DNA of 46,688 nucleotides, from contig BDIP01000017.1 of NCBI GenBank assembly GCA_003568945.1, forward strand, positions 1 through 46,688, given 5' to 3'. How positions within the stretch are numbered: position 1 is the first letter of the stretch; each line of letters begins with the position of its first letter. A program made the translations under genes and the position numbers. The notes under the pieces were generated by a model. It did not search any database and had not been told where the DNA came from. It was given only the letters and a program-made list of their open reading frames with translations. Origin of the DNA: Kipferlia bialata. Its lineage: Eukaryota. Positions 362 to 43,531 of this stretch are shown one piece after another.

Positions 362-419
362 CTGGTGGATGTGCCCTCTGTAGCTCTGCATAGTAGGCAT
401 CCACGGCCTCCTCTGCCAT
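362..419 (-). CDS. probable first exon of a gene continuing off the window (MAEEAVDAYYAELQRAHPP...)
   Basis: ATG at 419 (minus), 58 nt of open frame, then a GTAGA donor; lies ~130 nt downstream of the stop of the giant gene. Product unknown. Confidence 0.4.
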
Positions 420-548
420 CCCTCGCTAATGTATCAGAGAGAGAGAGGTCATATTAATAGCTAATGACAGCCAAAGGTGATTGTCGGATATGATTCGGAT
501 TTTCAGAGTCATGTAGACTCTATTCGAGCCACTATTACACACATTTAT

Positions 549-3500
549 TCATATCCCTCTCTTGCCCTGGACAGGTGACAACCTTACTATGTCATGTGGT
601 GGTAAGGGGGCAGAGCGACCCGGAAGATTCACATGATTCCCACCTCCGCCTCCGCCTCTTATACTTGGTGGAGGTGGGGGACTGCGACGCACCATATGGC
701 CACTCTCCCCCTTGCTGCCTGGGTATGGGGTGAGGGCACTACCAGGAACTGCCTCTATGGGGGCATCATGATGCTTCTCAATGGGTGTCTGTGCTCTCTT
801 CTGTCTGCAGTATAGATACACCCCACCAATACACACAAGGACACCAAGGATAGCGGCACCTGCTACCAGTAGGAGTGGTATAGAGGGTGTATCACCACCA
901 GTACCGGGTGGCACAGGTACAGTAGGTGCCTCAGTGACTGATATCGATGAGACTGCCACCCCAGTGAGCCAAGCCAACCCGGCATTGGAGGCCGTAACAT
1001 GGAGTGTATCCACACCTAGGGGGAGGGAGACAGGGCATGCCTCTGCCTCCCTCTCAGTGTCGCTGTACACACTGCATGTGGACACAAGCTCCATGTAGGA
1101 TATGTCTCCACTCTTCCTGGCATACACACTGAGCGTGGTGTCACTGTCTGCTGACAGGGCAGTGGCGTCCAGGGTGTTAGGGCTCCACACATACTCTAGG
1201 TCGAAGGGCGTGTCCTCAGCCACAGAGACAGGCAGGGAGAGAGAGAGACTCGGGAGGGAGAGGGGTGTGTCCGTGAAGGTGACTGATCCTGAGACAGCGT
1301 AGCTAGAGGAGGTGGCGGTTGTATCTACATCCTTGGCCTGTGTCTGTGTATCAACTGCACCACACTCACCCTCTGCCTCTCTGACAGCCAGGGAGTACAC
1401 ACCACTGTAGTATACCACCCCAGCTGTGTCCCACTCATACACACCAGTGCAGGGTAGGCAGGACTCCAATACAACGGTGTCAGCACCAGTGCCTGAGGTG
1501 AGATAGCGGTGGATAGAAATTGGAGACATATAGTTACGTGTATATGTACTAGCACCGCTACCTGACACGAGGGCCAGGTCTATGTAGTCTGTGTCCAATG
1601 CTGATACAGCATACATGACGGTGACTGTCTCTGCTACAGGTAGCATAGACCCAACAGGGGGTGAGTACACATAGACTGGGGGATCACTCACACACGCAGT
1701 CTCCCACTGCTGTGTGCCATCCTCTAGGTAGAACACTACACACATGTCACCAGCTGTGACAGGTACGTTGAAGGAGAGAGAGAGAGAGTGGGTGGAGAGG
1801 GTCCCGTCCTTGTAAATAGAGACAGACACACACCCGTCAGGAAGGGATATCTCTGACCCACCCACTAGGCATGTACCAGTGGATGTGTCTAGGAGAGGGG
1901 TAGAGGTAGGGGCAGTACCAGAGAGGAGACTCACAGAGGTACTTGCACACACACCCTGAGTGGCAATGTCGTCATCTCCATCAAACACCACACACAGCCT
2001 GTACTCTCCCTCTGCAGGTGTGGCTGAAGGGTCTAGGGAGAGAGTGGCGTGCCCGTGGTAGGACCCACCCTCGGGTATAGAGAGAGAGACTGGGTGGAGG
2101 GTGTCGACAAACGATGAGGCGTCCCCAGTCTCAGTGAGTATAATAGGGTACAGTGCCGCCCCTGCCACCTCCCACTCTGTAAAGGGTATGGCAGAGGGAC
2201 GGGACTCCCACCACGCAACTTGGAGTGTACCCTCCTCCACATACACTGAGGAGGGGGCTGATACATACCGGAGTGCCCCTCCATAGGGCACAGAGACCTC
2301 TGATAGGAGAGAGTCCGTAGAGGCTGAGGGTGAGGCATGGCCGAAGGCACCCAGCAGCACCTCTCCCGCCGTCTCACATCTGACATAGGCTAGGGAGAGA
2401 GTGGTATCGGTGGGGTCAACAGCCACTGTCTGGCCCTCAGTGTAGCCAGAGAGAGAGTGCCTAGCTGCCAGGCAGAGGGTGTTACCAGAGGTGGCGGTGT
2501 CTATATCGTGCAGGGTGAGTGGTACAACCCCACACATCTGGACTGAGACACTGTCAATAGAGATGGGTGCTAGGGACTCAAGGGGCACGGAGACGGGGAG
2601 GGAGAGATATGCTGAGTCCGCCGCACCCTCTAGATACAGCACACTCTCTGCCCCTGCAAGTGGGGCCAGCCCTCCATACACCCATATACACCGGTAGGAC
2701 ATGGATGAAAGTGTGGCAAGGAGGGTGTCACTCTCGTCCTGGTCCACCAGAACCCACTCACATGGGACAGCCTCCCCCTCACCCTCTGCACCTGCCACCC
2801 TATGCATGAGGGCAGGCGGGGTGGCACTGTATCCATTGACTGTGGCAGTGAGGGTATCACCAGTGTGTATGGAGGCACTACCAGTGGGGAGGGTCATTCT
2901 CAGGGTTGGTCTTACATACTGCACAGAGACACTCTGATACAGACCAGAGGCCACCACTCTAACTGTCAGTGCCACAGATACCCCATCAGTCATGGGTGTG
3001 AAGACAGAGAGAGAGGCTGGGCTAATGTCAACCTCTCTGACACCGGATACAGTGGCAACCCTCGAGCTATTCACATACACGTCGTAGGTGCCAAACGCCC
3101 CATCTGCGCTATCCGTCTCCCATGAGAGTGTATGGGTGGCGCCATCGAGTAAGATACCAGTTGTAGATGTGTCTGTACCACTGTATAGAGTGTCCCCATC
3201 AAGTGTTACAGTAGTCACTACAGTTGATGTTGTGTCTGAGGCTGTGGGGGAGGGTATGTGCACGCTGTTGAGGTAGCTAGACACAGCCCGGTACTTGGGG
3301 GAGAGAGAGGCGTCCTGGCCGGTGTACTCAACCAGGCCCCAGCAGCCATACACGGAGCACATGCCTGGGGTCAGCCCATTGCATACATAGTATATAGCAT
3401 ATACATACATAGTATGTATATGCATCAGAACTCTATTCATACATACTTCATGTACTGGGAGCACATGCCTTGGGTGAGAGAGACCAGGAGGAGTATAGAT

Positions 3501-6500
3501 ATAGAGACATCAAAGTTCAGAGTATGGTAATGAATAACCTGAATGCCCATGTAAAGGAGGATCAGTAGGGACATATCAATGTACCTGTTGATGTGAAGTG
3601 CATCTGCAGTGATATCCCGTGGTCGTGGTTGGCCTCTAGTATCCCATAGTACACAGCCTCTAGCCTATCATCCTGAGTCATGGCCTCAAAGAGCTCTAGG
3701 GCACCGAGGGTGCGGTAGGTCTGGCCCTGTATTGTAAGACATATGTATATATATATATATATATTTGGCTATCATATCAAATTCAACACTACATACTGAT
3801 AGTGCGGTAAGTCTAACCCTGCATGGTAAGACAGAACCATAGGAGACACTGAATAAGACTTATACATACAGAGAGACACTTATGCTTATCGATATATTCC
3901 CTTAGACTAGAGATTCAGGTACACACCTCTATCATCGCCTGCTCTACAAATGCCGGTCCCCCCTCGTATGTGGCCAGGGCCATATCGTATGACAGGGCAA
4001 GGGTGTAGAAGGCATCGATGTCTGATAGGTACTCATCCTGCCACCCAGTCGACTGGCACTCAGCCATGGCAGAGTCTGGGGTGAGACACTAACAACTGTA
4101 TATAATTAATATATATATGTACTCATGTGTATATATATATATATATATATAAATATGTATATATATGTTCGTATATATACACTCAGCCATGGCAGAGTCT
4201 GGGGTTAGCTCCATATATACTATAAACATATATGTATATAAGGTCTGCCATGCGACAGAGTCTGTGGGGTTAGTATCTAATGACACTATATATCACAATG
4301 ACTATATATACAATACATACACCAACGGCCATGGTGCATGTGGGATGGGTTAGACTGCTGTATACCCATATGTACTCATATATGTATATAATACAAAAAA
4401 TATATATATCAGAAGTCCTATATATATATACTCGGCCATGGCAGAGTCTGGGGTTAGACTCCAACAACTGTGTATAATACAATACAAATATAAGAATATA
4501 TATATATATATATATTTAGATATACTGAGTCATGGCAGAGTCTGGGGTTAGACTAATACTAGTGACTCTACACAACACAATGTATATACATAGAAACACT
4601 TGCTCTACGCACCTATGTCCAGGTTGAGCAGTCTTGTGATCTCTGTGCTTAGACCCCCACAGTCCCAGTAGCCTGAAGTGTAAGGGCAGAGAAGGTGAAA
4701 GTAAGGGGTATACTTATAGGCATGCCCAAGAATATACAAACCCACCCCCTGTGGCCAGCATGTCTGCCAGTTCACCAAGGGATGCACTCATGGATGGGCC
4801 CTGGTAGGCAAGCATGTCGGTGGTGTATCTGGGGTTAAGAGTGTCTAATACAAGTATACATATATATATATATATATATATACATGAAAAGAGTAGGCTA
4901 GCATGTCGGTGATATCAGTGGTGTATCTGGAATGAGAGGCAGGTAGAGTATTCATACATACACGGATACTAATACCATATAATAATACAGTGTATGAACA
5001 TATCCACCCCATACCTCATCAACCACCCCGGCACCAGGTTGACGAGTCTAGAGGCAGAGTCACCCCACAGGTCAGAGAAGATGGACCAGACCTCGCTACA
5101 CCTGGGGTCAGTACATACCATATGTATATACATGATATATATACTCTATATGTAAACGATACGGAGGAGGCAGTTTACCCACCTCACTGCCGTGTATCTC
5201 TGCCTGGCACACATGCCAGTGCATGGTATATATATATATATAGTGTATAATAGTATATAGCAGACTGATGATACCTCACAGCCGTGTATCTCTGTCTGGC
5301 ACACATGTCTGTGCCATAGTAGCAGGTGGGGTCGGTGGTGTAGGACCCGTCCTCCTGGGGGTGGGTATCTAGAAGAGACACGCATATGTATATATACATA
5401 TATATAATATTACACGTATATATAGAATCTTGATGATATATGTACTCTATGTGGTGTAGGACCCGTCCTCCTGGGGGTGGGTCTTTAGACATGACTTATA
5501 AAGAGCTATCAACAATAGTCATATATACAGTAATCACATATACCCACATACCTGCACAACAGTGTCTACTAGCCCCAGTCTCACTCCCTCTGCCTCGGCC
5601 CATTCACCTAATGTTAGGTACTAATATACCATAATTAACAGAGGTCTATGAACGATTGTGTCAAAATGATAGGCACATAGTACATCGAGTAGTTGAACAG
5701 TAGAGTGCAACAGTATCTCAGTGTCCACTAGTACTGACCTGCTGCCGTGGAGTCATTCAAATACATACCCTCCTTGATTGACTATTTCATTACATATTTC
5801 ATATATGCATATACAATACTTACATATATACATATATATCATGTATCAATATCACACCTGCTGCCGTGGAGCCATTCCAGTTCTCATTGCCCACACCCTC
5901 GAGATACACCTGGGGTCAGAGGAATACAGAGGAGAAGATACTGATGATAATCAGATTGAAGAGAGAAACGTTCTGAACATTTGTCTAGAAATGGTTCTTA
6001 AGAGTAATCTACATATCTATATCCACCTTAACGTCAGGCCTGAGTCCATCCCTCAGCATCGTGGCTGCCCCTCTGATGTATGTGTCATCTGACGCATAGG
6101 GCAGAGTCAGCCACAGGTCAGCACCTAGGGGGTTGGAAAGTACCCTCATGATATGTATATCTATGCATTAATCTATGCAATTCTGTATACTACTATAAGT
6201 ATCTTACCATATGGTTCATTCTAATCATGAATATATGATTTTACATGTCTATCCACCTGTTCTGTTGATGAGGTCCACTATCAGCTCGAGGCTCATCCCA
6301 TATCTCTCGTCCCTCCAGTCTGTGGTGTGTCGGGTGGCCCAGGTGGACTGGGCCTGGGGTTAGACCACAAATAGATATAGAAAGATATAGAGAAATGATA
6401 ATTACTACAATTACAAAAATTATATATGTATACCATCATATATTTGTATATTTATCACCTCGTCTATGTATGCAAGTTCGTTAACTCCCAATATCAAAAC

Positions 6501-9500
6501 CACCTCAGAATATATATATATATACATATATTGATAATTAATACATATATATATATACCATCACTCAATACCTCATCAATGTATGCCAGCCAGTTCATGA
6601 CCCTGATGGCCCCGAACTGACCCATGTACTCCAGATAGGCAGGGTGCCAGGGCAGGATGTGGTACCTAACGATAAGTACTACATGTATATATATATACTA
6701 AGAATACATATATACTAAGAACTATATGCCTATATATCTACAGGATGAGATACCGTAAGCCTCTCACTCACTCAGGGTAAAGGAGTAAGTGATTCCATGC
6801 GGAAGAAAGCGAAGAAATGAGTTTGGAGTGTGAAAGGAACAAATTGAATAGAATACTAGTAGATACTAAACAGCATATATGAGTCGAACCTGTCCTCATA
6901 CCCCGCCATGACCACCCTGATGTTCCTCAATGGGTCATCGGGGTTGGTGCGGGTAATGGTCAGGAAGAGACCGTTGTCGTCATCCTGGGGGGGTGAGAGC
7001 CTTATAGGTATACACACGCACACAAACACCCACCCACATATGCATATATAGATCCTCCTGGGGACTGAGAGGGGGTAATGGGGGTACACATATATACACT
7101 ACATACAGGCATGTGTATATATATTTACACCTCCGATGCTGTGTACTGTATGGCCACCACCCCTGCCCTGTATGACAGGAGTGATGCATCCTCTCTCTAT
7201 ATATACATGTATTCATATAGGTATAGACATATATATATACACTCTATATATATAAACTATCATCTATGTCCTTACCTCTGATGCACTATACTGTATTGTA
7301 ACCACCCCTGCCCTGTATGAGAGGAGTGATGCATCCATGCCCACAGTCAGGGTGCCATCGCCATCGTACAGGATGGTGTACTGGCCTAGGCATGAGATAG
7401 AGATTGGTAGTACCTATACCAATCTTACAGTTATCAAGGGGATGGTGAACAGGCCTGGAGAGACGGATTATGAAGAGAGAGAGATTAATGTACTCATAAC
7501 AAGTACAATACATATGATCTACAAGCACACCGTCTTCAAAGGCCATGTGTGTGTCCCTCAGCATCAGCGTGCTGACCACAACACCCTCAGGGATGTAGGT
7601 GGGGTGGCCCTGGGGGGTGAGAAAGAAAGAAAGGTAGGTACGTAGTTACACGATACTTCAGTCGCGTAAGAACACAATGTACCCACCATTGTTGGGTGGT
7701 ATGTGACCCTCTCGTCCTCTGTGTCCCACTCATAGGTGGGGGAGAGGACCCACCTGTGGGTGAGAGGGTGTTAAAAGATGTATATATATAGACGGTACAT
7801 CATAGTGTGTGATAGGTGAGGGACAGGACCCACCAGGGGGGGTTAGGTAGGAGGGTATATATAGAACAAATATCCATATGTCAATATATATATATATATA
7901 TATACAATATCCCTCACTTGTTATCCTCCTGTGTCACCCACTGCCTGGCTGTCATGAACAGATCAGAGACAAACTGCCTGGCTGTCATGAACAGGTCGGA
8001 GAAGACAGACTCGGTGGACCAGTCGCTGATGCCTACAATTAGGTACAAGCCCCTGGTGACACATGTGGATATACGTATGTGTAGACACACAGGTCATACC
8101 TGACACGTTCATGCCCAGTCTCCTGATGATACAAGTATATACAAGTGTATACATGATCTAGAGATACTACATACAATATATAAGAGGATGTGTCTAATCG
8201 CATCTACCTGACACGTTCATGCCCAGTCTCCTGTCCCCCATGTTGGGTGCCCACTCACCACCGGCCAGACACCTGGGGGGTTAGGTATACATATACCTAC
8301 ATATTAATATATATATATATATATATATAACAGGTACTATACTATACTGACACCGATGTTGGGTGCCCAATCACCACCGGACAGACACCTGGGGTAATCG
8401 GTTAAACTCTGCAAAGATACAGGCTTACAATACATGTGAAACGATGACCATGTACCCCACCCACCTGTCCCCCCCATACCCTGCCCAGCAGACACATGCC
8501 CCATCTATGCAGTCCCCATAGACACACGAGGCAGAGCAGCCTGGGGTGATGGGGAGATAGTACTGCATACCAAATACAGAGCGGACTGAACACACATGTA
8601 TTACTGTATGTATATTGTGAATGGAGACACATACCTGCAAGACCCGGCCCACTGCACTCTGCCTCTCCCTCACAGTCCCACACACACTCATGCAAAGAGG
8701 CGTCATAGACATAGCCTGTGTCGCACACACATGATGAATTGTCGGCTGAGCACACGCCGTGGCCATTGCACCCACAGTCGATCTGGGGTGAGGATACATG
8801 TAGAGGTGTCAGGAGGACTCATTTACAACAGCGTGTACTAAGGCAAAGAGGGTATTTGCACACTTATGCTCGGTACCTCGCATGTGTCACCGGAGTACCC
8901 CTCATAACACTCACAGACCCCAGGGTCAGTACAGGTACCGTGATAGCCACACCTACCCTCACACACTGTGGGTGAGACACATCAATACATGCAAAATGTA
9001 TACATACTCTAAGCATACACACAGGAAGGGTGAGAATGGGACCAACAGAGAGAGTCACGTCTTCGTTCCTGCACAAACCTTATACCCACCCACATATATA
9101 TATGTATATATACATACGTATACCTGGCTAGTGGTACTTGTCACACTCGTATTCTGTGCCACAAGTACACACACATCTATATATACACAAATATGTATAT
9201 ACACAGCGTCTATATGCATATCTATGTTTCTACCTGGGTAGTAGCACGTGTCCCCCTCGTAGTCTGTGCCACAGGTACAGACCTCATGCACTAGGTACGG
9301 CTCATCTGATCGGGTAGAGAGGGTGATGATGGTATCATGGCACTCACAACAACAGTATACTGTAGTATCTGTATGTATATATGAGTGTGTATGTGTGTGT
9401 ACCTGTGGACGGGCGTGACTGCACACACTCCTCACACGAGTAGCTGCAGTAGTCATACACAATGTTCCTCAGTTCACAGCTTGTCACGCCCTCTGTGACG

Positions 9501-10472
9501 GTAACCGTGTACCCGTAGTCACATGCCACAGTCCCGTCCGTCAGACACTGTCCGTGTGTCACATCACTGTCAGCACAGGTAGGGGTAGGGGGTATGTACC
9601 CACTGTCAGAGAAGTATGTCTCGATGGCAGCCTCTTTGGATGAGACAGAGTGTGTGTCAGAGGCTGGGTGTGAGACATATGCAAATAGAATGGAGTAATA
9701 CAATATACGCATAGGAAAGGTGGTGCATGTCGATGTTAGAGAGAATGCTGTGTGGTTCCAGTACTTCCAAATATATACTATTCATATACAGAATTTGTAG
9801 CCACCTGTGTTCAAGGCCCATGGGAACCCACTTGTACCAAACTGCACTACCAGGTCTAGGTGGTCCTGAAGGAGGGATGTGTAGCTGGAGGTGGGGAATA
9901 CGATCCGTTGTAAGGGAAGAACAGAACCTAATAGTAGAGTATATGTCTATTACAGTACATGTCATGTCTATAGAGATCATATAGTATTGAAGGGTGGTGT
10001 ACCTGGGTGTGAGGGGGGATAGATGATAGGAGCCACTACAACGAAGACATGTAGTAAGTAGAGTGATACCTTAGCAGTACATCCCCCATCCTACTATCCC
10101 TGTGCAGTGTCTGTGCCACATCCTCATCAGTGTCATCGGCCATGGTGAAGGAGACAGCAGACTCATACCTATTGTGAGGGTAATATATATCAGTATCAGT
10201 ATCACCATATATACACGTTTATACATGGTGAAGGAGACAGCAGACTCATACCTTGGGTGAGGGTAATATGTATCAGCATCAGCATCACCATATATATACG
10301 TTTATACATGGTGAAGGAGACAGCAGACTCATAGCTGCAGAGTGAGTGGACAAATGTATGCTTCAGCTTAATCATACTTAGAGAGTGAGGGGGCAAAGTA
10401 ATACACATACCAACACACTTCACATTGAGGATAATAGTGCACACATATACACGTACGATATGAGCCTGGAAC

Positions 10473-10503
<31 letters not shown>

Positions 10504-13500
10504 ATATCCGTACGATATGAGCCTGGGTGTGTGCCCCGTGGCCTGTGCCATCTCATCCAGCAGAGCATCGTGCTTGGCCTGGGGTTAGCCATCTACTGTA
10601 TTCTATATACTAAATACTATATAGGATATACTATATATCTCATCATACCACTCATCTCTATGCTGCCCCCTAGATAGGGGGCTAGGGCCAGTGCATCAGT
10701 GTTCAGCCAGAATACATGGTCAGAGAGGCAGTAGTCACCAATCGTGTAGTCAGCTACGGTGACATCGCCAAACATCTGCAGTGAGAGGGAGGGAGACAAG
10801 AGGTGTCACTAGCTATCAATACCCGCACCCTAATCCTTCCCATACTACATTCACACATATACATATATATATATACATATATATATATGTGTGTGTGTGT
10901 GTGAGCCACACTGACGTCACCAAACATCTGCAGTGCGGGGGGGGGGGAGACAAGAGGTGTCTATATACGCATGCGCAAGTCCCAACCTTGTGATTTACCT
11001 CTAGATATATATATATATCCCTACCTTCTTCCACGGCCACACTGTCACTGCCTGACCCGCTGCCACCCTGACCAGTCTGTCTGTCTGTCTCTCTCTCTCT
11101 CAATATATATATGTGTGTACATATCTATATATATACCTTCCTCCAAGGCCACACAGTGACTGCCTGTCCCGCTGCCACTCTGACCAGTCTGTCTCTGCTG
11201 CCAAACACAGACTCGAAGATGGACCACACCTCAAGGCTGGGAGTAAGTATAATTACAGCGTGATCTCACTGGTTGGTATATGTACACCGGTATCATACCT
11301 TCTCATAGCATACCAGCACAGCCCCATCTGCTGCATGTCGTCTGAGAGCATCCACCCATGCACTGTCTCTATGGCCTCATCATCTATGAGGGGTGTACCG
11401 TCCACCCTGCTACCCTCAGAGGCAGCGTAGATGGCACCGGGGAAGTATCCTGGAGTTAGAGCCTCTGCTACGCGATGTGCATAGCATTACAAGATTTAGA
11501 CCTAAAGCTACGCGATGTGTGATTTACTACACGATACATTACCTGTCCCCCAGACCTCGTTGGACAGTTCAATGTACATAGAGACATCGGGCCTCAGGTT
11601 ATCACGCAGATATGTGGCAAACTGGGTGACATACCTAGGGTGAGAGAGAGTGAGGGGTCAACACCGTGAACAATAAGTGTATCTCCAAGGTGATTATGTC
11701 CAATAAATCAGACTACCCACCAGTCACTCCACTAGTGGTCTACATATACTAACGCTTATGCTTATAGGTTCCTATATATGTACATACTGTATTTACACAT
11801 ACATACTGTTACTACACCCACCCGTCACTCCACTTGTGGCCTATGTTGACCCAGGGGTCGGAGCCTAGGGTGTTGCAGATGGTCACAATCTAAAGGGGTC
11901 AGATATGTCATAGAGTTCATACATACGATACATATATATACATATATATATGATGCAGATGGTCAACATCTAAGGGGAAAGAGTACATGGGTCGGCATAT
12001 ACGCTGTAAAACTTCCTATCTATACCTGCTCCACGGGTATCCCCCCCTCTGTCCATGTGTAGAAGGTGTCTCTCTCTTCTCTCTGTCTCTCTCTCTCTCT
12101 CAATATGTATATGTATATCTATACCCATACCTGTTCCACGGGTATCCCCCCCTCTGTCCATGTGTAGAAGGTGTCCCTGGCCAGCCTTGTCTCCCAGTCA
12201 AGGGGCACTCCATCAGAGTCATAAGGAGTGGCGGCATCAACACCATCTACACCCTTTAGTTAGAGATATACAGGAGAGAGAGAGAGAGAGAGTCATGGGG
12301 GGTGGCATCGTCAACACCATCTGCATTTTGGTATTAGAGTAGAAGACAGCAGAGAGAGGGGTAGAGAGGGATAGTCATTAGAGTGACAGCATTCCCTCCA
12401 TCAAGTCCCTGGGTTGGCTGGGAGGCTAGGTTAAGAATTGGAGGTATTAATGGAGAGACCGTGTATATACTTTGTGACGCATACAAGCATCCCTACCTGC
12501 AGCGGGTCTGTCTCCACATCGTGGTTGGTGACCATCAGATCCATGAACCTGGGGGGGTTAGGAGGCATAGAAAGGGGATAAGAGAGGGCTCTAGCAGCTA
12601 CACTACTACGTCATACTAATCAGGTCCATGAACCTGGGGGGAAGAATAGGAGGGGTAGCATAGATACGTATGGATAATGATAAATCAAAATGTGATTAAC
12701 AATGTACACCATTACCTCCGCACCCTGTATCTACATGTATATATGTGTAATATGTATGTGTGTACAGTGGTGTAAGTGCATACCTCAGCACCCTGTATCT
12801 CCTGAGGTAGTCCAGCCACTGAGTGCTCATGGGCTGGGACACATAGAGACACTCGTCATGCTCACTGGGGTCAGGGAGAGTATGGTCCGGTAGAGTTTCT
12901 TCTATGTATGTATATATAGACATAGTATAGTAGAGATGCTCAAACTATACGCACGTATAAATCCAGACACTATTCTTGCTCCCTGGCATCAGAGGTAGAG
13001 AAAGGGATGATTGGGTGATGGATAGGTAGAGAGTGATATACATATCATCTGTTGTGGACATGGCAGAGACTACACCATACATGAGCAACTCAATGGCTTA
13101 CACACATATATGGGAACGCAGTAGACATATACAGCTACCAAACTAACCACACGCGTACAAAAATTCACACAGGGTTACCTGACCACCACAATGTCTCTGA
13201 TTGGATCCTCCGGGTCTGTTCTGTTGATGGATATGTGCAGTCCATTGTTGTAGTCGGTGGAGCAGGTCAGCTCAATCACTATCCTGCAGAGTGAGTGGCG
13301 GATTCATATATATATATATGCATGTAAATACAGTCACACCTATATCCATCTACATGTATATATCCCCCTTACCTTCCTGGCCTAGCCTCCACAGGTGCAT
13401 CGAAGTTGAAGTACACTTATACGTACATACTACATACTGTATATATATATGTATTATATATATACATCCCCCACCTTCCCGGTCTGGCTTCTACAGGTGC

Positions 13501-16500
13501 AGCATCAAAGTTGAAGTCCAGCACCCCCTGTCCCGAGTACAGTACCACATATCTACCATCTGGCACTGAGTGGCACTCAATGTCCCTGGTCAATAGGGTG
13601 TGGGCACACCTAGCGTCAGACTATGATGTATAGATATATATATGTGTGTGTGGGTATATATATATAGGCATATATATACTATGTGAGTAGTTCTCACTAG
13701 CACGATCTAACATGCACTCATCCCCTACCTATTTAGACACACACATAAAATATCATGTATATATACAACGTCGACCCCCCTACCTATTGACATGGGTGTA
13801 CAGCGGGTACCCATCGTCCGAGAGAGTGATCTCCCTATCGTTGGGGTTACCATCGGCGTCTAGACCATCCTCGTCATACCCGTCCAGAGTGTTCCTGAGG
13901 TGAGTATAGTGACATGTTACTCGGTTGTGTGACATGTTACACCACGTACCAGTTGTAGTCTGTGTGCCCGAGTGCCCCATAGAGCCACTGTCTGCTCCTG
14001 GGGTGAGGGTCATAGACATAGCAATAGAGGTGTACTGTACATATATATACTACTCATGACTGCGTTGTCTGCTCCTGAGGGTGAGGGGGTTGGATAGGAG
14101 TCATCATGTATATAGTGCGTCATATACTCTAATTCACAGTTAGTGCAATATGTGTGTATTATGTACAGGTACTATATGTATACACATCCTAGTCATGAGG
14201 TCCTTGTCACACTCTCCCTTTATCAAACTAATACTCCTTCTCTAGATACTGTACATACAATATATCTGAACTATTATATGTGTACCTAGTCATGAGGTCC
14301 CTTGTGACGCTCTCCCTCTGCCAGTCTGACACGCCACTCATGGACACACCCATCGAGGGGGGTCTGGGGGGTGAGGGTGGACAGAGAGAGATATATATAT
14401 AATGATTATATAGATATATATACGTGTGTCCGTATGAACGTACATACACCACCCATGGAGGGGGGTCTGGGGGTGGGGGTAGATGAGTATATACATTCAC
14501 GAATATACTTCGGCATATACGCCATGTAACAGGAAAATGTGAGGCGGACGTAATGATATAATGTATACATATCAGTATAATATTCCATACCTTGTGTCCC
14601 AGTCGCCTCTGTCCATCAGTGTGTCACAGGCATCACCTGAGTACCCGGCATGGCACAGACACAGACCTGGCGGGTGAGTGGTATCATAGACTACCCTAAA
14701 AGAGATACAGAGTGGAAAATCACCTAAGGACCATACCTGTATCCGTATCCACCACAGTGTGTCTCAGATCCAGAATAACAGGGAGGAGATACTAAACATA
14801 TAATACATATGCATATATATTAGTGCTATCCCACCTGTATCCATGTCCACCACCCCATACACACATAGAGTGTCAGATACAGATGGACAGGTAGGGGCAG
14901 TGGTGAAGACTAGAGGGGCACTCTCGGACTGGGGTAAAGGCACAAAGCGCGTGTGTATGAGAGAGAGAGGTAGAGATGCAATGATACAACAACAGTGAAT
15001 ATGAATATATATGTATATATATGTATAGACCTTCATACCTCACTTAGTGGCACACCCCCGTTGGCTGCAAAGTGACTGTATGCCTGGTATCTGGCAGAGG
15101 AGGAGAGGGTCTCCATGCTGTGGTGCTGGGCATCTGAGGTGAGGGACTACTATGCTATATACACGCCTGTTATATATATATATATAGAGAGAGAGAGAGT
15201 GGACAAACAAACGCCATACATAGACACATTCATACACTACTATACTGTGGTACGGGGCATCTGCAGTGAGGGGTCTATCATAGGCCATGAATAGATGTAC
15301 TATACTACAAACATTATGTGTGTGAATAGACCCTAACAACCCACCTATCAGCCCACAGTCCTTGTTGTACCACATGTCCTCCTCACACATGTTGGTGTGC
15401 TTGGTGAGGGCAGGGGCGATCACAGCACGGGAGCCCTGGGGGTTGAGGCATACATACGCACATGTGAATGTGCACGACATAGTGTGAAGTAGTTGACCAA
15501 TACACAGCTACGCATACCTGTGACCGCAGAGTGTTGAGCCAGTCGAGGGTGAGGTCAGTGACAAGCTGGTTACTCGATTCAGTGTCAGATTCACCCATCA
15601 GAATGCGGGTCATTCTACCTACAGGTGAGATAGCTCCCCATATCATTGTTCCATTAAGACATATTTGTGTTAGAAGCCACTTAGACCAGTTATACATACC
15701 CTCCAGTCTGCTCTCCCTCTGTGCGTCCAGTAGCTCATCAGCAGAGGGGTCATCGGACCTGGAGTACCTGAAGGTGAGTATGTGAGTAGGAGACAAACAC
15801 ATACATTCATACACCACATTCATGTTTACTGTCTCCTATACACGTACAGTACTAGTATGTAAGAAACCCCTATACCTGAACCGTGCCCCGTGTGTGGATG
15901 GCCTCAGGTGCATATACACATACAAATACATACATATACACATAAGAGTATGTATATAAACACATGTATATACCTGAACCTAGCCCCGTATGTGGATGGC
16001 CTCAGATGGATACCACCCAGGGTGGGCATGGTACGGAGGCCATAGTCAAGGGCCTGGGGTTGATACAGATACATAACATATACATCTATATACAGGTATA
16101 TACAAGTAGCACTAGGCCATAGTCATGCATCATTACTATTCTTATGACTAAAGAGGAGAGGCCATAGTCAAGGGCCTAGTTGGTAGAGAGATATACATTT
16201 GTCTTTGTATTTCAGAAGGGGTACGCACCACTTGTGCTAGCCCTGTGAAGTATGGGTCGTCTGATATGATGCCCCTGTCCACTGCATAGAGGAGGAGGGC
16301 AGGGTCATCCAGGGAGTCTGGGGGTTAGATGTATATACAAAAAACAATATACAATTTACATTTTCCAATATTCAATATTCAATAATCGATATTATCAAAT
16401 GTATATACATACATACATATATATACCTAGCAGGGCCAGTGTCTCTGAGTCACTGCTGTCATAGCTACCAGTGCCATAGGAGCCAAGGGAGCCTGGGGTC

Positions 16501-18048
16501 AGGAGAGCATGGGTGTCACTTTGGAATAGAGATATATACACCAATATGTCCCATATATGTCCTGTCACCTTTGTATGTGATGTGCTTGATGTATGTATAC
16601 TAAATATATATACTCTACACCAATGCCCACATATATACTCTTTCTATAGCACTAATATAATCAATAGAGGGACAGACACCCTCTCCACCTGTGTATGTGA
16701 TGTGCTTTCCGTAGTTTTACTCTACACCAATACATGTGAATCCTCTACGTTCAATCCATACTATACACATACATGGACACACCTGTGTATGTGATGTGCT
16801 TGACGTATGTATTGGCCAGGGCCAGGAAGGCATCATCCCTGGGGGTGAGGCATACGGTACAGGTAGTGTGAATACTTAGATGCTTGTAGTGAGAGACCAG
16901 TAAGCCCGCACCTATCCTTCATGTCCTGCAGATACAGGTCTAAGTGGTTGTCATACAGTGTGACCATGACCCACTCAGACACACTTGAAGGGGAGGCAGA
17001 GGAGGGGTAGGCGAGGTCCCACAGCTGGAATAGTAAGTACATATAACAGTACATATATATATATATGTATACATGTGTATATGTCATATCCTATACCTGT
17101 GCGGCAGACACGGTCTGTGTCAGGTGGGCACCAACAGCACCCATGTAGGCCTAGAGAGTGAGAAGAGACAGCAATAGATATAGATCTACACTATCGACTG
17201 TCATGACTAACCTTCTCTCCATACTGCAGGTATCTAGGCCGAACGGACCAGTCTCTATGGTGAGAGAGCAGCAATAGTATGTCGAGGTATACATACAGTC
17301 ACTAGTCTAAACCTAAACTGCTCTGCACACAGTGTGAAAGAGTCATCTGATATGGACACATATGTATCAATGAAAGAGTGTATGAACACAAATATACGAG
17401 TAATAATTGAACTCCTCACCATGTGACACAAGAGATAGGGACAAGTACAGACATAAATACGTGTGAAGATTACCTGAACTGCTCTGCGCACTGTGTGACA
17501 TAGCCATCGGTGGCATCGGCAGGCAGGGTGAGGGAGATGGAGAGGCCTGGGGTGGGGGGATGTAAGGAAAAGACTAGAGAGTAGACATGTAGAACACAAT
17601 ATGTTCATGTCATATGTCAACAACTTGGCGTTTCATAAAAGTGCACCTGTCTCCTCCGCCAGTCCCTTGTAGTACAGGTACGGCATGGACTCGTCAGACT
17701 GGGTGGTTAGAGTGTACACATACATGTGTAGAATAGAGTATACTTAGAGTGTCGCTATGTATACAGGTACGGCATGGACTCGTCAGACTGGGGTGACAAG
17801 GATACATATGGGTATATGGATATGAATGGGATTACAAATCTATAGATATGACAAATATATGACAATTCTAAAACTGTTATATTTCATATTATGTGTATAC
17901 CTCATACCCATATACACATAGATAGGTATGGATATGGATATGGATAGAGATACAAGGAAAGAATAGGATACCCACCTTCTAGTACAGCCTCTCTATCTAT
18001 ACCTATCTATACATATATGTACATACAACTCAGTAAATACTATATTAA

Positions 18049-18080
<32 letters not shown>

Positions 18081-20293
18081 GCCCCCACCTTGTAGTACAG
18101 CCTCTCCATTGGTCTGTCCTCCCATGCTCGTGTCTTGTCCCCACTGTTCCACTCATCCTCACTCAGGGTGCTGTCGGACTCCCACTGACATTAGAAGGAT
18201 AGTATATACACAAACCCCCCCACACACACGCATATGTATATATGAAGTGAAGACAAGTACAACATAGGGTGCTGTCGGACTCCACTGGAGTGGGTATGAG
18301 GACTCTTCATTGATGAGGTTAATACCCCGGGAACAGTATTCTTATGCCCATATGGCCAGACACAGCATCCCCCCTACCTCTGGGTGTATTGTGTCGAACG
18401 GCTGCACTGCTGCTATGTACTCTGGTGTGTAGAGGGCATCGGAGGGGAGGCCATCAGATTCAGGTACACACTTGGGGTGAGAATAGGGGTGTAGGGAGAG
18501 AGAGAGAGAGAGAGAGAGGCCATCGGACTCGGGTGCACACTAAGAGTGAAAATAGGGATGGAAAGAGAGAAGAACGGAGAAAGACAGACAGAGAGAGAGA
18601 GAAGGGTATGAGACTGAGTCACAGCCCATGGGGGAATGTGGTGAAGAGAGAGGGAGATTACGACTACGTAGTGGGAGAGAGACATGCTCCACCTGCAGAG
18701 AGTGCAGTGAGAGAGAGTATAAGGGTGTAGGATGAGAGAGAGAGAAAGATGTCATACCTTGAGGGAGTGCACTGGGTCTGACACGTCTGAGTGGGATATC
18801 AGGATGAGGGCATGGCTGGGGTCACAAAGAGAGAGAGAGAGAGAGAGAGAGGGAATATGAGGGTAGAGCTGGTTAGATATATAGATAGTCCAGTATATAT
18901 GTATATATATATACTGGGAGTATGGTACCTGTATGGCGTCTCTCTGTACGAGTACGAGGTGAATACATGGTCACCAATGGGCACAGGTATTACATCCAGT
19001 CTGATATGGTAGACCCCATCAGACTCAGAGACTAGCTCGACAGGTCCCCGGAAGTCAAGAGACCCTGTCCCACTGAATGTGCACACATACTCTGAGTAGG
19101 GGAGGGTGTTGGAGACTGCGACTGGGCCTCCATAGAGATAACCTTGAGTTATACAATAATACATAGATACAGAAAGAGAGAAAGAGGTATTGGAGAATCC
19201 GAGTCTCCATAGAAACACCCTAGAGAAAGAGCCTCTATTTCAGAGACAGAGAGAGAGAGAAAGCACATGTGGAGGAGAGGGGTAGTGGAAGAGAGAGAGA
19301 GAGAGAGAGAGAGAGGTATGTCGCACCCTCTGCCATTGCCGTTGGGTAGTGTGTGTATGCATCTGCGGCACACTCAGTCTCATCAGGGTGGTAGTCCACA
19401 TACACATTCTGGGGTGAGGGGGGACGTAGTGTTAGAATATATAGCATACAACATAATAATAAGACACTCCACTGTATCTATGTCTGGGCCCACATACACA
19501 CACACACACATTCTGGGGTTAAATGGGGGGGGGCATAGTGATAGTATACATGTCGATACAGATTGATGACACTCTAGACTGAGTGGGATCTGCGTGCAGT
19601 CCAAGGATATTATAGTTGGTAGGCACCCACCTGTCTTCCGTATGTGTCTGTATCACCCTCACTGGTGCTGTACTTGTACCAGGCAGTGGTCTCTAGGTGC
19701 AGAAGCAGATTCCTGAGGGGTGAGAGACCGTGGACAGAAAGACAGGGAGAGAGGGAAGGGATAGAGAAGTCAGTAGGAGAAAGAAAGAAAGGGGGGGGAG
19801 CAGATATTGTTTATGCTGACACACATAAGAATAGGGACTAGAGAGTGAGAGGGGAAGCGAGGTAGGTAGGGTATACAGGATTGGGGGGGGTTAGTAGGTG
19901 GGATAGTACTCTCTCACCTGAACACCCAGTCTGTGCCCCACATGTCTGGCTTGGCCACAGGTACACCGACCTAGGGGGTGAGGGGGGGGGGGGAGATGTG
20001 TGGGAACCTACAGGTAGATACTGATAGTCATGCTGTGTGTCACTGGATTAGACACTCTTCCTAAACAGACCTCCCTCGAGAGAATACAGTCAATACATAC
20101 AAAGACACCGCACAGTATCACAAAAGACAGGTCTGATAAGACAAAGAGAGAGAGAGAGAGAGAGAGAGAGGAGTAGTACCTCAGTCCGCGGCTCACAGGC
20201 ATCCCCCCTGAAGAATGCATTGGAGGGGATGTCATCACACACAGAGGCACCCAGACACAGGGATACAAGACACACTGACACAAGGATACGCAT
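549..20293 (-). CDS. giant multi-exon type-I membrane protein: signal peptide, 3x clan GH-A-like (bacterial 'cellulose-binding protein'-type) glycosidase domains, EGF-like spacers, stalk, TM, Pro-rich tail
   Basis: Exon 1 (20293-20180) encodes MRILVSVCLVSLCLGASVC (signal peptide; alternative ATG at 20299). Dozens of GT-AG exons splice into recurring motifs (GMNVSGISDWSTE, GQYTILYDGDG, TNPDDPLRNIRVV, RFMD/RVMNW, YIELSNEVW/YLEGVGNENW, YEGG). The terminal exon 3364-549 holds the TM (LLLVAGAAILGVLVCIGGVYLY) and PPPPP tail. A few internal exon boundaries remain unresolved. Confidence 0.8.
3280..8271 (-). other. GH-A-like domain copy 3 (acid/base NE and nucleophile YEGG retained)
   Basis: Spliced peptides RLGMNVSGISDWSTE, GLFLTITRTNPDDPLRNIRVV, WHPAYLEYMGQFGAIRVMNWL, DLWLTLPYASDDTYI, VYLEGVGNENWNG (exon 5858-5909), LATYEGGP (~3957-3975) and YGCWGLVEY. 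Confidence 0.78.
8460..9580 (-). other. tandem EGF-like/Cys-rich modules
   Basis: Exons encode GQCLTDGTVACDYGY, CTCGTDYEGDTC, CVCDTGYVYDASLHECV and CVYGDCIDGACVCWAGYGGDRC. Confidence 0.75.
9640..14365 (-). other. GH-A-like domain copy 2 (acid/base NE and nucleophile-position Glu retained)
   Basis: Spliced peptides MGVSMSGVSDWQRE, GRYVVLYSGQGVLDF, NRTDPEDPIRDIVV, VLRFMDLMVTN, DPWVNIGH, MYIELSNEVWG (exon 11543-11634), DALALAPY and RLISYESA. Confidence 0.75.
14628..15135 (-). other. Cys-rich/EGF-like linker between GH-like copies 1 and 2
   Basis: Exons encode PTCPSVSDTLCVYGVVD and CLCHAGYSGDACD (EGF C-x-C-x2-GY-x-G-x2-C). Confidence 0.65.
15360..19970 (-). other. GH-A-like domain copy 1 (degenerate; catalytic Glu motifs replaced)
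   Basis: Spliced peptides GVPVAKPDMWGTDWVFR, YVCTFSGTGSLDF, ISHSDVSDPVHSLK, SLTLPADATDGYVTQCAEQFR, AYMGAVGAHL and RTMPTLGG occur in the same order as in copies 2 and 3. Confidence 0.6.
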
Positions 20294-20299
20294 GCTCAT

Positions 20300-20463
20300 C
20301 CTATTGGGCGACACGAATGTCACCCAGGGTTGGAAGGGAGGAAGAGGGCAGATGATCAGACCCTGACTGGTTGATAGCATGAAACGTTCAGACGTTCTCT
20401 ATACTCAGAGACTCTGCTTCTCTAGTCTTCACACCGATCGTGAAGAAGGTCCACGTTATCAAT
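20300..20463. promoter_or_regulatory. compact divergent (putatively bidirectional) promoter region
   Basis: About 165 bp separate two signal-peptide-encoding start codons on opposite strands (20293/20299 minus; 20464 plus). No specific motif identified. Confidence 0.5.
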
Positions 20464-41957: not shown

Positions 41958-43531
41958 ATGTCTATGTATGAGTGTCAGTGGGAGTGGGAGTGTCGGTCTC
42001 TCTCATCATTGTCTCTATCCATACCTCCAGACGTACTTTGACTCTATCACTTTGTACTAACCCCAGGTGACATCCTTTGCAGTGGGGTGTCTGTTCCTGC
42101 TGTACCTAGGCCACAGACACTTCTTCGGGGCAGGCACAGCTAGGTATCTATATACCATGAACATCCCTATATATATATATATACTATATACAGTATACTC
42201 ATTCCATGTATACTCATTTCTTGTATTCCATCCATCTGTCATCCACCCTGCACCCACCATTGTATATATATATACGTATACTTCCACCCACCATGTGCCT
42301 TTATTAATAAGTATATATATGTATATATGTATACACTGATTTATCCACCCTGCACGATTGTGTCTACCACTCAGATTCAGACATAGTAATGAGGTGTTCT
42401 GTGTATATGTATTGCCCATTGTGTCTCACCTGTACTTATATGTAGTCAGACACAGTGATGAGGTATATATATATATGTGTGTCTCTCACCCCTAGGGGCA
42501 AGCGCATTGGGTCCAACGACCAATGTTATATTTATATATTACTTATAGAATTTATATATTATATATACTATATTATATAGTCCCTTGTGCCTCACCCCTA
42601 GGGGCAAGCGCATTGGGTCCATCGATCTGTTTCTTGCCTTCTATACACTATATATATATATGCTCATATGTGTATACACTGACACCAGGGGCAAGCGCAT
42701 TGGGTCCATCGACCTATTCATAACTCTTTGTCAGTATATATATAGGCCATTAGGACACTGACACCAGGGGCAAGCGCATTGGGTCCATCGATCTGTTTGT
42801 GGCTGTGTCTGTGTGTCTAGACCTAGTCATGCTGTACGGGTGGGTGTGCCCGAGGTGGATAGACACAGACACGCAGTGTATGGTGCGTGGCATAGTGTGA
42901 ATGTATATACATATTGTATATATTAATATATATATATATATGCTGTACGGGTGGGTGTGCCCGAGGTGGATAGACACAGACACGCAGTGCATGGTGCGTG
43001 GCTGTTTATACTATATATTCACATATTGTATATTTATATATTTGCAGTCAACAGATACTCAGTGCATGGTGTATCGCTGACTATAATATATGAGGGAGTA
43101 TGTGTACACTGGTATGACTTTTGCTGACATAGAATGTAGAACTGCCCTCTCACACCATACCCCTATACCACAAGTACCCACACCCCAATCCCCCTTCTGT
43201 GTGGCCTCTCTCGTGTCTCTCCCTCTCTTGCACCCCTGGTCTCATTTGTATATACCAGACTATGTGGGAGGTATCAGTATGGATATCAGTGTCAATATCA
43301 GTATCAATACTGACCCCCAGGTCTCCTTTGCATATAGTATATATATGTACTGGACTATGTGGGAGGTATCAGTTAGGTATTAATTATGTATAAGATACTG
43401 ATACTGACCCCCAGGTCTCCTTTGTGCTTGACTATGTGGGTGGGGTGGCAGCAGAGGTGGTCATGGTGTGCTTTGCACACCACGCTTGCCTGTCTCTCCA
43501 GGTACCAGTACTGATGTACTCTCCCTCCGTC

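Follow-up and report, generated by a model that had tools for sequence, protein, structure and literature searches.

In the free-living metamonad protist Kipferlia bialata, the giant gene KIPB_000157 carries direct copies of its own exon ends, each with the attached splice site, in the adjoining introns at 41 of 124 splice junctions. The evidence supports local direct duplications that take in the splice site and that are strongly concentrated at splice junctions. With a probability of about one half, the copies are relics of local head-to-tail ("mirage"-type) duplications whose units of ~100 nt straddled the junction and have since decayed. The window is one entire contig of 46,688 bp, and the analysis was confined to it.

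The giant gene and its transcript

KIPB_000157 lies on the minus strand (363..20380) and has 63 annotated exons and 62 GT-AG introns; splice signals in this host are compact. The 63-exon annotated model was reproduced exactly starting from protein P0001, which matches the last large exon at 97% identity. The product, a type I membrane protein, has EGF repeats (EGF_TEN and EGF_Teneurin matches) and two internal paralogous domains of ~500 aa each. The transcript is seen as a spliced RNA contig of 8470 nt which includes an exon missing from the annotation (10775..10649, minus strand). Real internal exons go down to 43 nt in length, and an in-frame exon duplication of 33 nt is present at 7940-8002.

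Copies of splice junctions in the giant gene

For each junction, a query of 30 nt of exon and 8 nt of intron was aligned locally to the adjoining intron. At a cut-off score of at least 12.5, 19 donor and 22 acceptor junctions had a copy, spread over 36 of the 62 introns, and 40 junctions still had one when simple repeats were masked. The same queries aligned to the 61 non-adjacent introns gave median scores of 6-8 and maxima of 9-16. A rank test, in which the adjacent intron must outscore all 61 others, was passed at 40 of the 124 junctions against a chance expectation of ~2. Inverted copies were nearly lacking (1/124 junctions versus 40 direct). Windows placed purely within intron interiors passed in 16 of 276 cases (Fisher p = 2e-11 versus junctions), or 8 of 268 after removal of windows from the missed exon and one tandem unit (p = 3e-15), so that copies are far commoner at the junctions of this gene than in its intron interiors. 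The exon-derived part of the copies is 9-64 nt long (mean 29) with an identity of ~90%.

An earlier note on this DNA had claimed about 30 decoy copies at exon ends, mostly keeping GT or AG. All 13 donor-side and 16 acceptor-side positions that it listed hold a copy, among them one near 10914 which duplicates the acceptor of the exon that is absent from the annotation and present in the RNA contig. GT is retained in 18/19 donor copies and AG in ~20/22 acceptor copies. The observation of decoy copies is thus confirmed as real; its interpretation, taken up below, is partly supported. The copies are listed with the true site that each resembles and the offset from it in nt.

19501..19519, minus strand: copy of acceptor 19408, offset 104, score 17
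19205..19225, minus strand: copy of acceptor 19142, offset 77, score 13 (weak)
18510..18541, minus strand: copy of acceptor 18470, offset 69, score 18.5, partly CT-repeat
18266..18287, minus strand: copy of acceptor 18184, offset 100, 18/18 nt identical
17971..17996, minus strand: copy of donor 18089, offset 113
17759..17792, minus strand: copy of acceptor 17698, offset 89, 31/31 nt identical
17311..17342, minus strand: copy of donor 17474, offset 161
16566..16598 (offset 214) and 16686-16713 (offset 94), minus strand: copies of donor 16783
16158..16177, minus strand: copy of acceptor 16053, offset 122, 20/20 nt identical
15871..15905, minus strand: copy of donor 15974, offset 98
15242..15268, minus strand: copy of acceptor 15133, offset 127
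14735..14755, minus strand: copy of donor 14835, offset 98
14446..14473, minus strand: copy of acceptor 14363, offset 103
14188..14217, minus strand: copy of donor 14286, offset 97, GT changed to GA
14066..14083, minus strand: copy of acceptor 13997, offset 78
13722..13739, minus strand: copy of donor 13784, offset 55, score 12.5 (weakest case)
13363..13399, minus strand: copy of donor 13475, offset 104
12965..12986, minus strand: copy of acceptor 12864, offset 118
12713..12732, minus strand: copy of donor 12784, offset 68
12619..12641, minus strand: copy of acceptor 12548, offset 85
12299..12325, minus strand: copy of acceptor 12253, offset 74, without AG
12022..12055, minus strand: copy of donor 12131, offset 105, ~44 nt of homology with one mismatch
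11951..11977, minus strand: copy of acceptor 11889, offset 80
11715..11742, minus strand: copy of donor 11822, offset 101
11022..11054, minus strand: copy of donor 11137, offset 112, ~54 nt of homology
10904..10935, minus strand: copy of the acceptor region of the unannotated, RNA-contig-supported exon 10775..10649, offset 152
10452..10469, minus strand: copy of donor 10514, offset 57
10169..10336, minus strand: two additional 83-nt units, both containing a copy of acceptor 10168 and of 28 nt of exon, spacer score 39; a young head-to-tail repeat, homologous across the whole unit
9121..9151, minus strand: copy of donor 9234, offset 110, RNA joint at 9234
8359..8394, minus strand: copy of acceptor 8272, offset 116, RNA joint at 8272
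8097..8125, minus strand: copy of donor 8208, offset 108, 29/29 nt identical, 79-nt unrelated spacer, RNA joint at 8208
7812..7840, minus strand: copy of acceptor 7753, offset 80, AG changed to TG
7440..7456, minus strand: copy of acceptor 7385, offset 69, score 13 (weak)
7129..7160, minus strand: copy of donor 7276, offset 145, ~63 nt of homology
6457..6476, minus strand: copy of donor 6572, offset 113
5737..5758, minus strand: copy of donor 5858, offset 119
5451..5478, minus strand: copy of acceptor 5354, offset 116, 32/32 nt identical
5181..5212, minus strand: copy of donor 5275, offset 92
4893..4922, minus strand: copy of acceptor 4828, offset 87
4180..4555, minus strand: four copies (~4205, 4267, 4454, 4548) of acceptor 4075 and exon start, inside a 537-nt intron
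3795..3824, minus strand: copy of acceptor 3726, offset 92
3453..3475, minus strand: copy of acceptor 3364, offset 104

Copies elsewhere on the contig

A second gene, predicted in this analysis on the plus strand, has copies at 9 of its 20 junctions. Of 37 local repeats elsewhere on the contig, ~26 contain a splice motif as judged by eye. The cases in the predicted gene and at a third locus are as follows.

42494..42718, plus strand: three copies (42494, 42600, 42687) of acceptor 42768 and exon start
42942..43091, plus strand: two copies of donor 42882 with its exon end; the copy at offset 111, the first, is 60/61 identical and its spacer homology is weaker
43233..43330, plus strand: two copies of acceptor 43415
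44040..44162, plus strand: two copies of donor 43980
44618..44647, plus strand: copy of donor 44569, offset 73
45081..45176, plus strand: two copies of donor 44992
45532..45669, plus strand: copy of acceptor 45705, then a perfect 55-nt head-to-tail repeat (45559-45669)
34815..35050, plus strand: third locus, three or four donor-junction copies (first copy 34713-34740), splice motif assigned by eye

Period, spacers and intron length

The offset between copy and true site in the giant gene has a median of 101 nt (mean 102, sd 28; 41 copies), and periods below 55 nt were not seen among the copies. The length of the copied exon part is not significantly correlated with the period (rho = 0.21) and is negatively correlated with the spacer (rho = -0.36, p = 0.02). 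A period that is independent of the copied exon length fits a unit of set length. The median intron length is 97, 203 and 288 nt with zero, one and two copies, and the single introns with three and four copies measure 345 and 537 nt. The slope of ~94 nt per copy (r = 0.76, p = 1e-12) bears out the idea in the earlier note that copies lengthen introns. What is left of the intron beyond a copy has the size of an ordinary intron.

In 7 of 41 cases the spacer is similar to the flank on the far side of the copy (p <= 0.05); in the other 34 it shows no similarity to that flank. It is unrelated even beside identical cores, as at 8097-8125 (29/29), 17762-17792 (31/31) and 5451-5478 (32/32); with a single neutral decay rate, 30 of 30 identical positions at 25% divergence has p = 2e-4. 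The spacer exceeds its presumed source stretch in ~6/24 single-copy introns, a figure worked out by hand from part lengths, offsets and remainders. Changes in the copies (strong-to-weak 38/499, weak-to-strong 32/406) reveal no drift towards A+T, so the TA-richness of the spacers is not simple decay after the event. Microsatellites lie inside 30 of 41 spacers versus 9 of 26 copy-free introns. The proposal that breakpoints fall in microsatellites retains a weak enrichment only, since these adjoin 11/41 inner copy boundaries against a background of 15% (p = 0.04).

Three young cases are repeats whose units are homologous throughout: 83 nt in three units at 10169-10336, 111-nt units at 42831-43050 and the perfect 55-nt repeat at 45559-45669. 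Their head-to-tail arrangement is in line with a duplication model.

Origin of the copies

In the head-to-tail duplication model, duplications of ~100 nt would arise along genes by replication slippage or unequal exchange. The mRNA would be left intact only when one breakpoint is exonic and the other is in the adjoining intron, because the outermost site beside the real exon would still be used. The TA-rich, intron-derived part of the unit would soon become unrecognisable. The exon-derived core would stay identifiable thanks to coding constraint on its template, possibly also through gene conversion from the exon. As for the silence of the copies, a ~30-nt pseudo-exon with a splice site on one side only would escape exon recognition.

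An excess at junctions would be expected from this model without targeting of the mutation, since ~100-nt duplications do not fit basic introns of ~97 nt, duplications within an exon or spanning a whole exon or intron would be selected away, and intron-only copies would fade faster. The suggestion in the earlier note of a process centred on junctions therefore stands as far as the events are local, direct and junction-concentrated, but mutational targeting need not be assumed. The model has costs. Unrelated spacers beside identical cores call for a far faster turnover of TA-rich sequence or for gene conversion; the spacers that exceed their presumed source also speak against it; and slippage usually favours short units, so that selection must be invoked to explain the lack of periods below 55 nt.

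One-step break repair is on balance an unlikely origin. After a double-strand break near the junction, staggered or resected, the gap would be filled with TA-rich filler DNA and the ends rejoined, leaving a target-site-like duplication of 15-60 nt that flanks a new, unrelated spacer. Fragile GTATAT-type intron starts and (TA)n tracts might favour junctions. The 34 unrelated spacers and both microsatellite excesses agree with such a mechanism, as does the abrupt loss of homology in young donor copies, 2-5 nt after the GT (at 8097-8125, 29/29 and then none). Offsets and identities also indicate that the most identical pairs already have ~100-nt spacers, so the spacers did not grow slowly. However, filler would not be predicted to make copy and spacer sum to ~100 nt regardless of copy length, and the three youngest events are simple head-to-tail repeats that are homologous throughout the unit. 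Snap-back copies, which would be inverted, were not seen (1/124), and a source of filler was not found within the contig.

Strength and use of the copied sites

The copied sites are near-equal to the true sites in score, with means of 8.8 versus 10.0 bits for donors and 9.3 versus 11.5 for acceptors. The earlier note had suggested that the spliceosome would be made to choose among near-identical sites; the likeness is real, but the RNA contig follows exon-contiguous sites and ignores nearly all copies, bearing in mind that assembled contigs drop rare isoforms. Over five intervals, which together contain 26 copies, the transcript is as long as the annotated exons added up, to within 1 nt, and the RNA joints at 8208, 8272 and 9234 fall on true sites. 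A partner site within 90 nt is present for none of the 19 donor copies and for one of the 22 acceptor copies. At the youngest repeat, the 83-nt units at 10169-10336, the RNA contig carries 82-83 unplaced nt, and this repeat may be an exception to the silence of the copies.

That selection keeps the copies for a function, be it tuning of splicing efficiency, recursive intron removal or nonsense-decay isoforms that set expression, is quite improbable. Its appeal lies in sites that stay strong (14/19 donors and 18/22 acceptors are above the 10th percentile of true sites), in exon-derived cores that are far better preserved than spacers, also between two intronic copies, and in the missing A+T drift; a shared-variant mosaic among four acceptor copies suggests inter-copy exchange. 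Against a function, the copied sites are unused in the RNA contig and 36 of the 41 would bring a stop within 60 codons if used. The GT needed by a recursive site follows 5/22 acceptor copies, the same share as for all exons (16/62). The true site scores higher in 15/19 donor and 15/22 acceptor pairs, indicating mild decay of the copies, and their ~10% divergence is distributed across all change types.

It is more improbable still that the spacers are short mobile elements (introners, MITEs or retroposed RNA) inserted near junctions with target duplication. The layout of copy, ~70 nt and copy would suit them, spacer composition is intron-like, and retroposition is known to produce long target duplications of variable length; yet the spacers have no common termini and match only low-complexity sequence elsewhere in the 46.7-kb contig, target duplications of 15-60 nt far exceed those of DNA transposons, and no paper among those searched mentions both Kipferlia and introners. 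Short-read misassembly is scarcely credible: the assembly is a draft and the DNA-run contigs end at TA-rich repeats in several places, but the copies are ~10% diverged from their originals and sit within unique spacers, RNA joints agree with the exon map around them, and separately built DNA-run contigs, which may share their reads with the assembly, show zero differences across the many copies that they cover (5453-7874, 12146-15160, 15213-17043).

Relation to known junction duplications

The closest known likenesses to the Kipferlia copies are the amphioxus "mirage" junction duplications, a precedent described in PMC3087553, and the repeat in human F7 intron 7, where, according to PMC1557585, the most upstream of identical donors is used. 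What is new in Kipferlia is the density of copies, the predominance of single copies whose TA-rich spacers are unrelated, and their occurrence in a metamonad with compact splice signals.

The giant gene and its splice signals

The longest open reading frame on the minus strand (552-3365) matches a 2753-aa protein at 97% identity. Threading this protein back onto the DNA recovered the public model of KIPB_000157, referred to here as the giant gene, exactly; on the minus strand, its 63 exons are separated by 62 introns and extend from 20380 to 363. Kipferlia bialata is a free-living fornicate (Metamonada) and 124,912 GU-AG introns have been described in its draft genome (PMC5874029). The protein is composed of EGF repeats, two internal paralogous domains, a membrane helix and a short tail; Pfam searches of single exons returned weak EGF matches only. 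The paralogous domains, encoded by 3927-8272 and 9805-14363 (minus strand), are about 500 aa each, carry NE(V/N)W-type motifs and have no Pfam match. They may resemble a TIM-barrel glycosidase.

The 3' end of the public model (363-1562, minus strand) looks doubtful. The model cuts a 69-nt "intron" (1493-1561, minus strand) out of a long open frame and ends in an additional exon at 363-425. Left whole, this frame reaches a stop codon at 549-551 and encodes the membrane helix and a Pro/Gly-rich tail. At 18798-19500, the contig depth of the DNA run rises about eight-fold (4242 versus about 500), and many false contig joints converge at 18893-18913 and 19491. This region probably contains a CT/GA-rich repeat that also occurs elsewhere in the genome.

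Donors of the giant gene read AG|GTA or AG|GTG. The acceptor consensus is CTCACCCCAG|G, with a YTNAY motif that starts 10-13 nt ahead of the exon in 52 of the 62 introns. Exons begin with G in 40 of 62 cases and with GT in 16 of 62, and the smallest real internal exon is 43 nt. With the branch point predicted from the motif, which lies at a fixed short distance from the AG, the acceptors appear to have the fused branch-point/3' splice-site layout of other metamonads. A duplication of about 12 nt would therefore carry a complete acceptor.

Exon ends are copied into adjoining introns

The earlier note had listed 29 intronic copies of exon ends with their splice signals and proposed that duplication is centred on splice junctions. 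Each of the 124 junctions was represented by a query of 30 nt of exon and 8 nt of intron, which was searched against the adjoining intron with a cut-off score of 12.5. A score of at least 12.5 was reached at 41 of 124 junctions (19 donors, 22 acceptors) in 36 of the 62 introns, and at 40 when simple repeats were masked; in all 41, the copied unit spans the exon-intron boundary with its splice site. Every one of the 29 copies was recovered and twelve more were found. Against the 61 other introns, the same queries gave medians of 6-8 and maxima of 9-16. Expressed as a rank test, 40 of 124 junctions scored higher in the adjacent intron than in any other intron, where about two would be expected. 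An inverted search reached 12.5 at just one of 124 junctions; thus, the copies are direct.

The exon-derived part of the copies is 9-64 nt in length (mean 29) and has diverged by about 10%. The changes show no A+T bias (strong-to-weak 38/499 versus weak-to-strong 32/406). All but one of the 19 donor copies retain GT, and about 20 of the 22 acceptor copies retain AG.

When the intron-rich part of the gene was scanned without gaps, 72 local direct repeats were identified. They pair a junction with an intron in 41 cases, an exon interior with an intron in five, and an intron with an intron in 24; one more, the in-frame 33-nt duplication, lies within an exon. By reading, most intron-intron pairs join one copy to another or are weak TA-rich matches. 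Of 304 interior windows, 62 score 12.5 or above; since TA-rich sequence inflates such a fixed-score count, the rank test was preferred for intron interiors. Of 276 interior windows, each with at most 5 exon-derived nt, 16 outscored all other introns, as compared to 40 of 124 junctions (Fisher p = 2e-11). Six of these 16 are the acceptor copy of an unannotated exon and two are the spacer of one tandem unit. Upon removal of these eight windows, the comparison becomes 8 of 268 versus 40 of 124 (Fisher p = 3e-15). The earlier note had held that equal frequency in intron interiors would speak against a process centred on junctions; the junctions are instead clearly enriched. Intron-only duplicates are harder to detect because both copies drift and are TA-rich.

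In a gene predicted in this study at 42.0-46.6 kb (plus strand), the adjacent intron outscores 71 other introns at 9 of 20 junctions, so the copies also occur outside the giant gene. Elsewhere in the contig there are 37 local direct repeats with a score of at least 15, of which about 26 have an in-register splice motif as judged by eye.

Spacing of the copies and intron length

The offset from a true splice site to its copy ranges from 55 to 214 nt, with a median of 101 nt, a mean of 102 nt and a standard deviation of 28 nt. It is independent of the amount of exon copied (rho = 0.21); a longer exon part is accompanied by a shorter spacer, the stretch between original and copy (rho = -0.36, p = 0.02). 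The median intron is 97 nt without a copy, 203 nt with one and 288 nt with two; one intron has three copies and measures 345 nt, another has four and measures 537 nt. The slope of intron length on copy number is 94 nt (r = 0.76, p = 1e-12). Measured from a copy to the far splice site, the remaining sequence is as long as a normal intron, and copies lie near the middle of their introns. From this slope and the normal-sized remainder, it follows that about 100 nt were added per event. Insertion of a 30-nt copy alone into introns that were already long is ruled out, since the increment is 94 rather than about 30 nt per copy and the copies are located mid-intron.

Origin of the copies

The set period, the direct orientation, the quantal intron lengths and three young head-to-tail repeats argue for a tandem-type duplication. 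The young repeats, in each of which homology extends over the entire unit, are as follows:

10169-10336: three units of 83 nt
42831-43050: units of 111 nt, the exon-derived part 60/61 identical and the TA-rich rest loosely similar
45559-45669: perfect repeat of 55 nt

Together, these features favour a tandem-type process acting on junction-spanning units of about 100 nt, in the manner of the amphioxus duplications known as mirages. Selection would account for the excess at junctions: a 100-nt unit would not fit inside a 97-nt intron, and units within exons, or across whole exons or introns, would alter the mRNA.

The weak point of tandem duplication is the unrelated spacers. The spacer resembles the flank beyond the copy in 7 of 41 cases and shows no similarity to it in 34, including cases with a core that matches at 29/29, 31/31 or 32/32 positions. 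If both parts decayed at a single neutral rate, this would be very unlikely; a 30/30 identical core at 25% divergence has a probability of about 2e-4. The TA-rich part of the unit could be turning over far faster, or the core could be corrected from the exon. Four acceptor copies show a mosaic of shared variants, which hints at exchange between copies. Many of the events may, on the other hand, be one-step insertions, by break repair, in which filler was placed between the two halves of a long duplication. Such filler would explain the unrelated spacers directly, while a search for spacer sources elsewhere in the 46.7-kb contig, on either strand, returned low-complexity matches only. Of the two, tandem-type duplication is the one to which the period and the young repeats point.

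Copied sites are strong and mostly unused in the RNA contig

The copied donors have a mean score of 8.8 bits versus 10.0 for true donors, and the copied acceptors 9.3 versus 11.5; random intron positions have median scores of -4.8 (donor) and -7.3 (acceptor). The 10th percentile of true sites is exceeded by 14 of the 19 copied donors and 18 of the 22 copied acceptors. No acceptor-like partner was found within 90 nt upstream of any of the 19 donor copies, and a donor-like partner lies downstream of only one of 22 acceptor copies. With full site scoring, these counts rule out the reading of the spacer as a complete intron next to what was once a micro-exon. Splicing at a copy would lead to a stop within 60 codons in 36 of 41 cases; only 8 of 41 offsets are divisible by three. 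GT directly follows 5 of 22 acceptor copies, the same share as among all exons (16 of 62), and the copies do not fit the layout of a recursive splice site, or ratchet point, in which a regenerated GT donor comes straight after the 3' splice site. In 10 of 19 donor copies, an AG is found no more than 2 nt from the start, versus a background of 21% (p = 0.002), and several of these are (GA)n tracts. There is no enrichment of GT after acceptor copies (9 of 22 versus 33%, p = 0.30).

Use of the copies was followed in run X2, which is labelled "RNA?" and presumed to be RNA. It derives from the same sample as the DNA run X1 and has 23% of the sampled words. An 8470-nt contig from X2 aligns with the giant gene in exon-sized pieces with the joints at GT-AG introns, the introns being skipped. 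In each of five intervals, which together include 26 copies, the transcript differs by at most 1 nt from the combined length of the annotated exons. Between 7500 and 11500, the annotated introns account for 10 of the 12 listed RNA joints, among them those at the true sites 8208, 8272 and 9234, all three close to a strong copy. At the level of the contig, the mRNA uses the exon-contiguous site, with a possible exception at 10169-10336. Contigs lose rare isoforms and low-level use of copies may therefore exist. The copies would be silent if the site that is used always adjoins a full exon, a one-sided site with about 30 nt of exon-like sequence forming no exon. The functional pseudo-donors downstream of the authentic donor of human F7 intron 7 are likewise ignored (PMC1557585).

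The possible exception involves the 83-nt repeat, which the alignment of the RNA contig left out. The contig contains 82-83 unplaced extra nt between 10513 and 10169, equal to one unit of the repeat. The extra nucleotides fit either use of the copied acceptor 10251 or an exon at 10334-10252, and a brute-force frame search gave many open-frame solutions. The youngest copied acceptor may be used in RNA.

Two further features of the RNA contig concern the gene model:

10775..10649, minus strand: 127-nt exon found in the RNA contig and in the gene model of this study, absent from the public annotation
7935-8002, minus strand: in-frame 33-nt tandem duplication inside exon 8032..7918, with 11 aa repeated in the annotated protein

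In our reading, the 127-nt exon translates into part of the second paralogous domain. The neighboring RNA joint from 10579 to 10649, which skips 69 nt, is one base off a GT-AG intron, which makes the reading frame there provisional. The 33-nt exon duplication is represented in the RNA contig by a single unit; the missing stretch, 7935-7967, has no GT-AG ends. The single unit could reflect allelic variation, a difference between assemblies or collapse of the contig.

Comparison with known systems

In amphioxus, mirage units span a 5' or 3' exon-intron boundary and measure from tens of bp to about 160 bp; many copies retain AG or GT, regular splicing is undisturbed, and degenerate copies are found within introns (PMC3087553). 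The Kipferlia units share all of these traits, spanning the boundary on both sides, keeping AG or GT, leaving splicing undisturbed and having degenerate intronic copies. Mirages are described as head-to-tail arrays at a few animal loci. In contrast, the Kipferlia copies occur at about one third of the junctions of one gene and also in a second gene, are mostly single, usually have an unrelated spacer, keep a narrow period of about 100 nt and belong to a metamonad protist. In human F7 intron 7, the first unit of a 37-bp VNTR spans the exon 7 donor and the most upstream site is used (PMC1557585). There too, identical-looking functional pseudo-donors lie downstream and are silent. F7 is a single, experimentally studied locus whose short tandem array is perfect, whereas Kipferlia presents dozens of diverged single copies, at donors and acceptors, identified from sequence.

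The Rogers model reportedly has introns created by tandem or segmental duplication of an exon piece that contains AG|GT. As in Kipferlia, a second splice site arises from a local duplication and the mRNA is unchanged; however, the model requires a copy flush with the opposite splice site and an intron that is entirely duplicate. The nearest copy in Kipferlia is 53 nt from the far splice site, which does not fit this birth of introns by AG|GT duplication; pre-existing introns were lengthened, not created. Introner and MITE-derived introns form families of similar elements with target-site duplications of a few bp. While short repeats at intron borders and many introns hit together are common to both, the 41 Kipferlia spacers have no shared termini, form no family within the contig, where their matches are low-complexity only, and are accompanied by duplications of 15-60 nt.

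The fused branch-point/3' splice-site motif has been described in introns of Giardia, Trichomonas and Spironucleus, and 87 of 174 spliceosomal proteins were found in K. bialata (PMC6679479). That work, as far as its text was available, concerns intron-poor parasites, includes K. bialata only for spliceosomal proteins and does not address junction copies. The main text of the K. bialata genome paper makes no mention of duplications in introns (PMC5874029). A literature search gave no report of junction copies in Kipferlia or in any protist, at genome scale or at this density. Junction-spanning repeats are already known as sporadic arrays in animals. What is new is a dense and mostly single-copy form that combines unrelated spacers with a period of about 100 nt, in a host with compact splice signals.

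Implications

Gene finders are misled by the copies; the gene model of this study called micro-exons at 14466-14448, 10251-10215 and 4198-4181. For splice-site choice, the giant gene may be regarded as a natural experiment with dozens of replicates, in which near-equal sites lie about 100 nt apart. Only the exon-contiguous one is represented in the RNA contig, apart from the possible exception at 10169-10336, in an organism with compact signals and, reportedly, 87 of 174 spliceosomal proteins (PMC6679479). An unlikely extension is that a junction-aimed duplication, acting genome-wide, lengthens introns by increments of about 95 nt and perhaps also multiplies them. Tens of thousands of full-strength silent decoys would then be ignored, the reduced spliceosome recognising an exon as a whole and not whichever two sites lie closest together. 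If the copies are genome-wide, the introns of this intron-rich metamonad (124,912 in total, PMC5874029) would owe most of their differences in length to one simple type of event. The pattern would also have a bearing on intron growth and, by way of the mirage model, on the possible birth of introns and exons.
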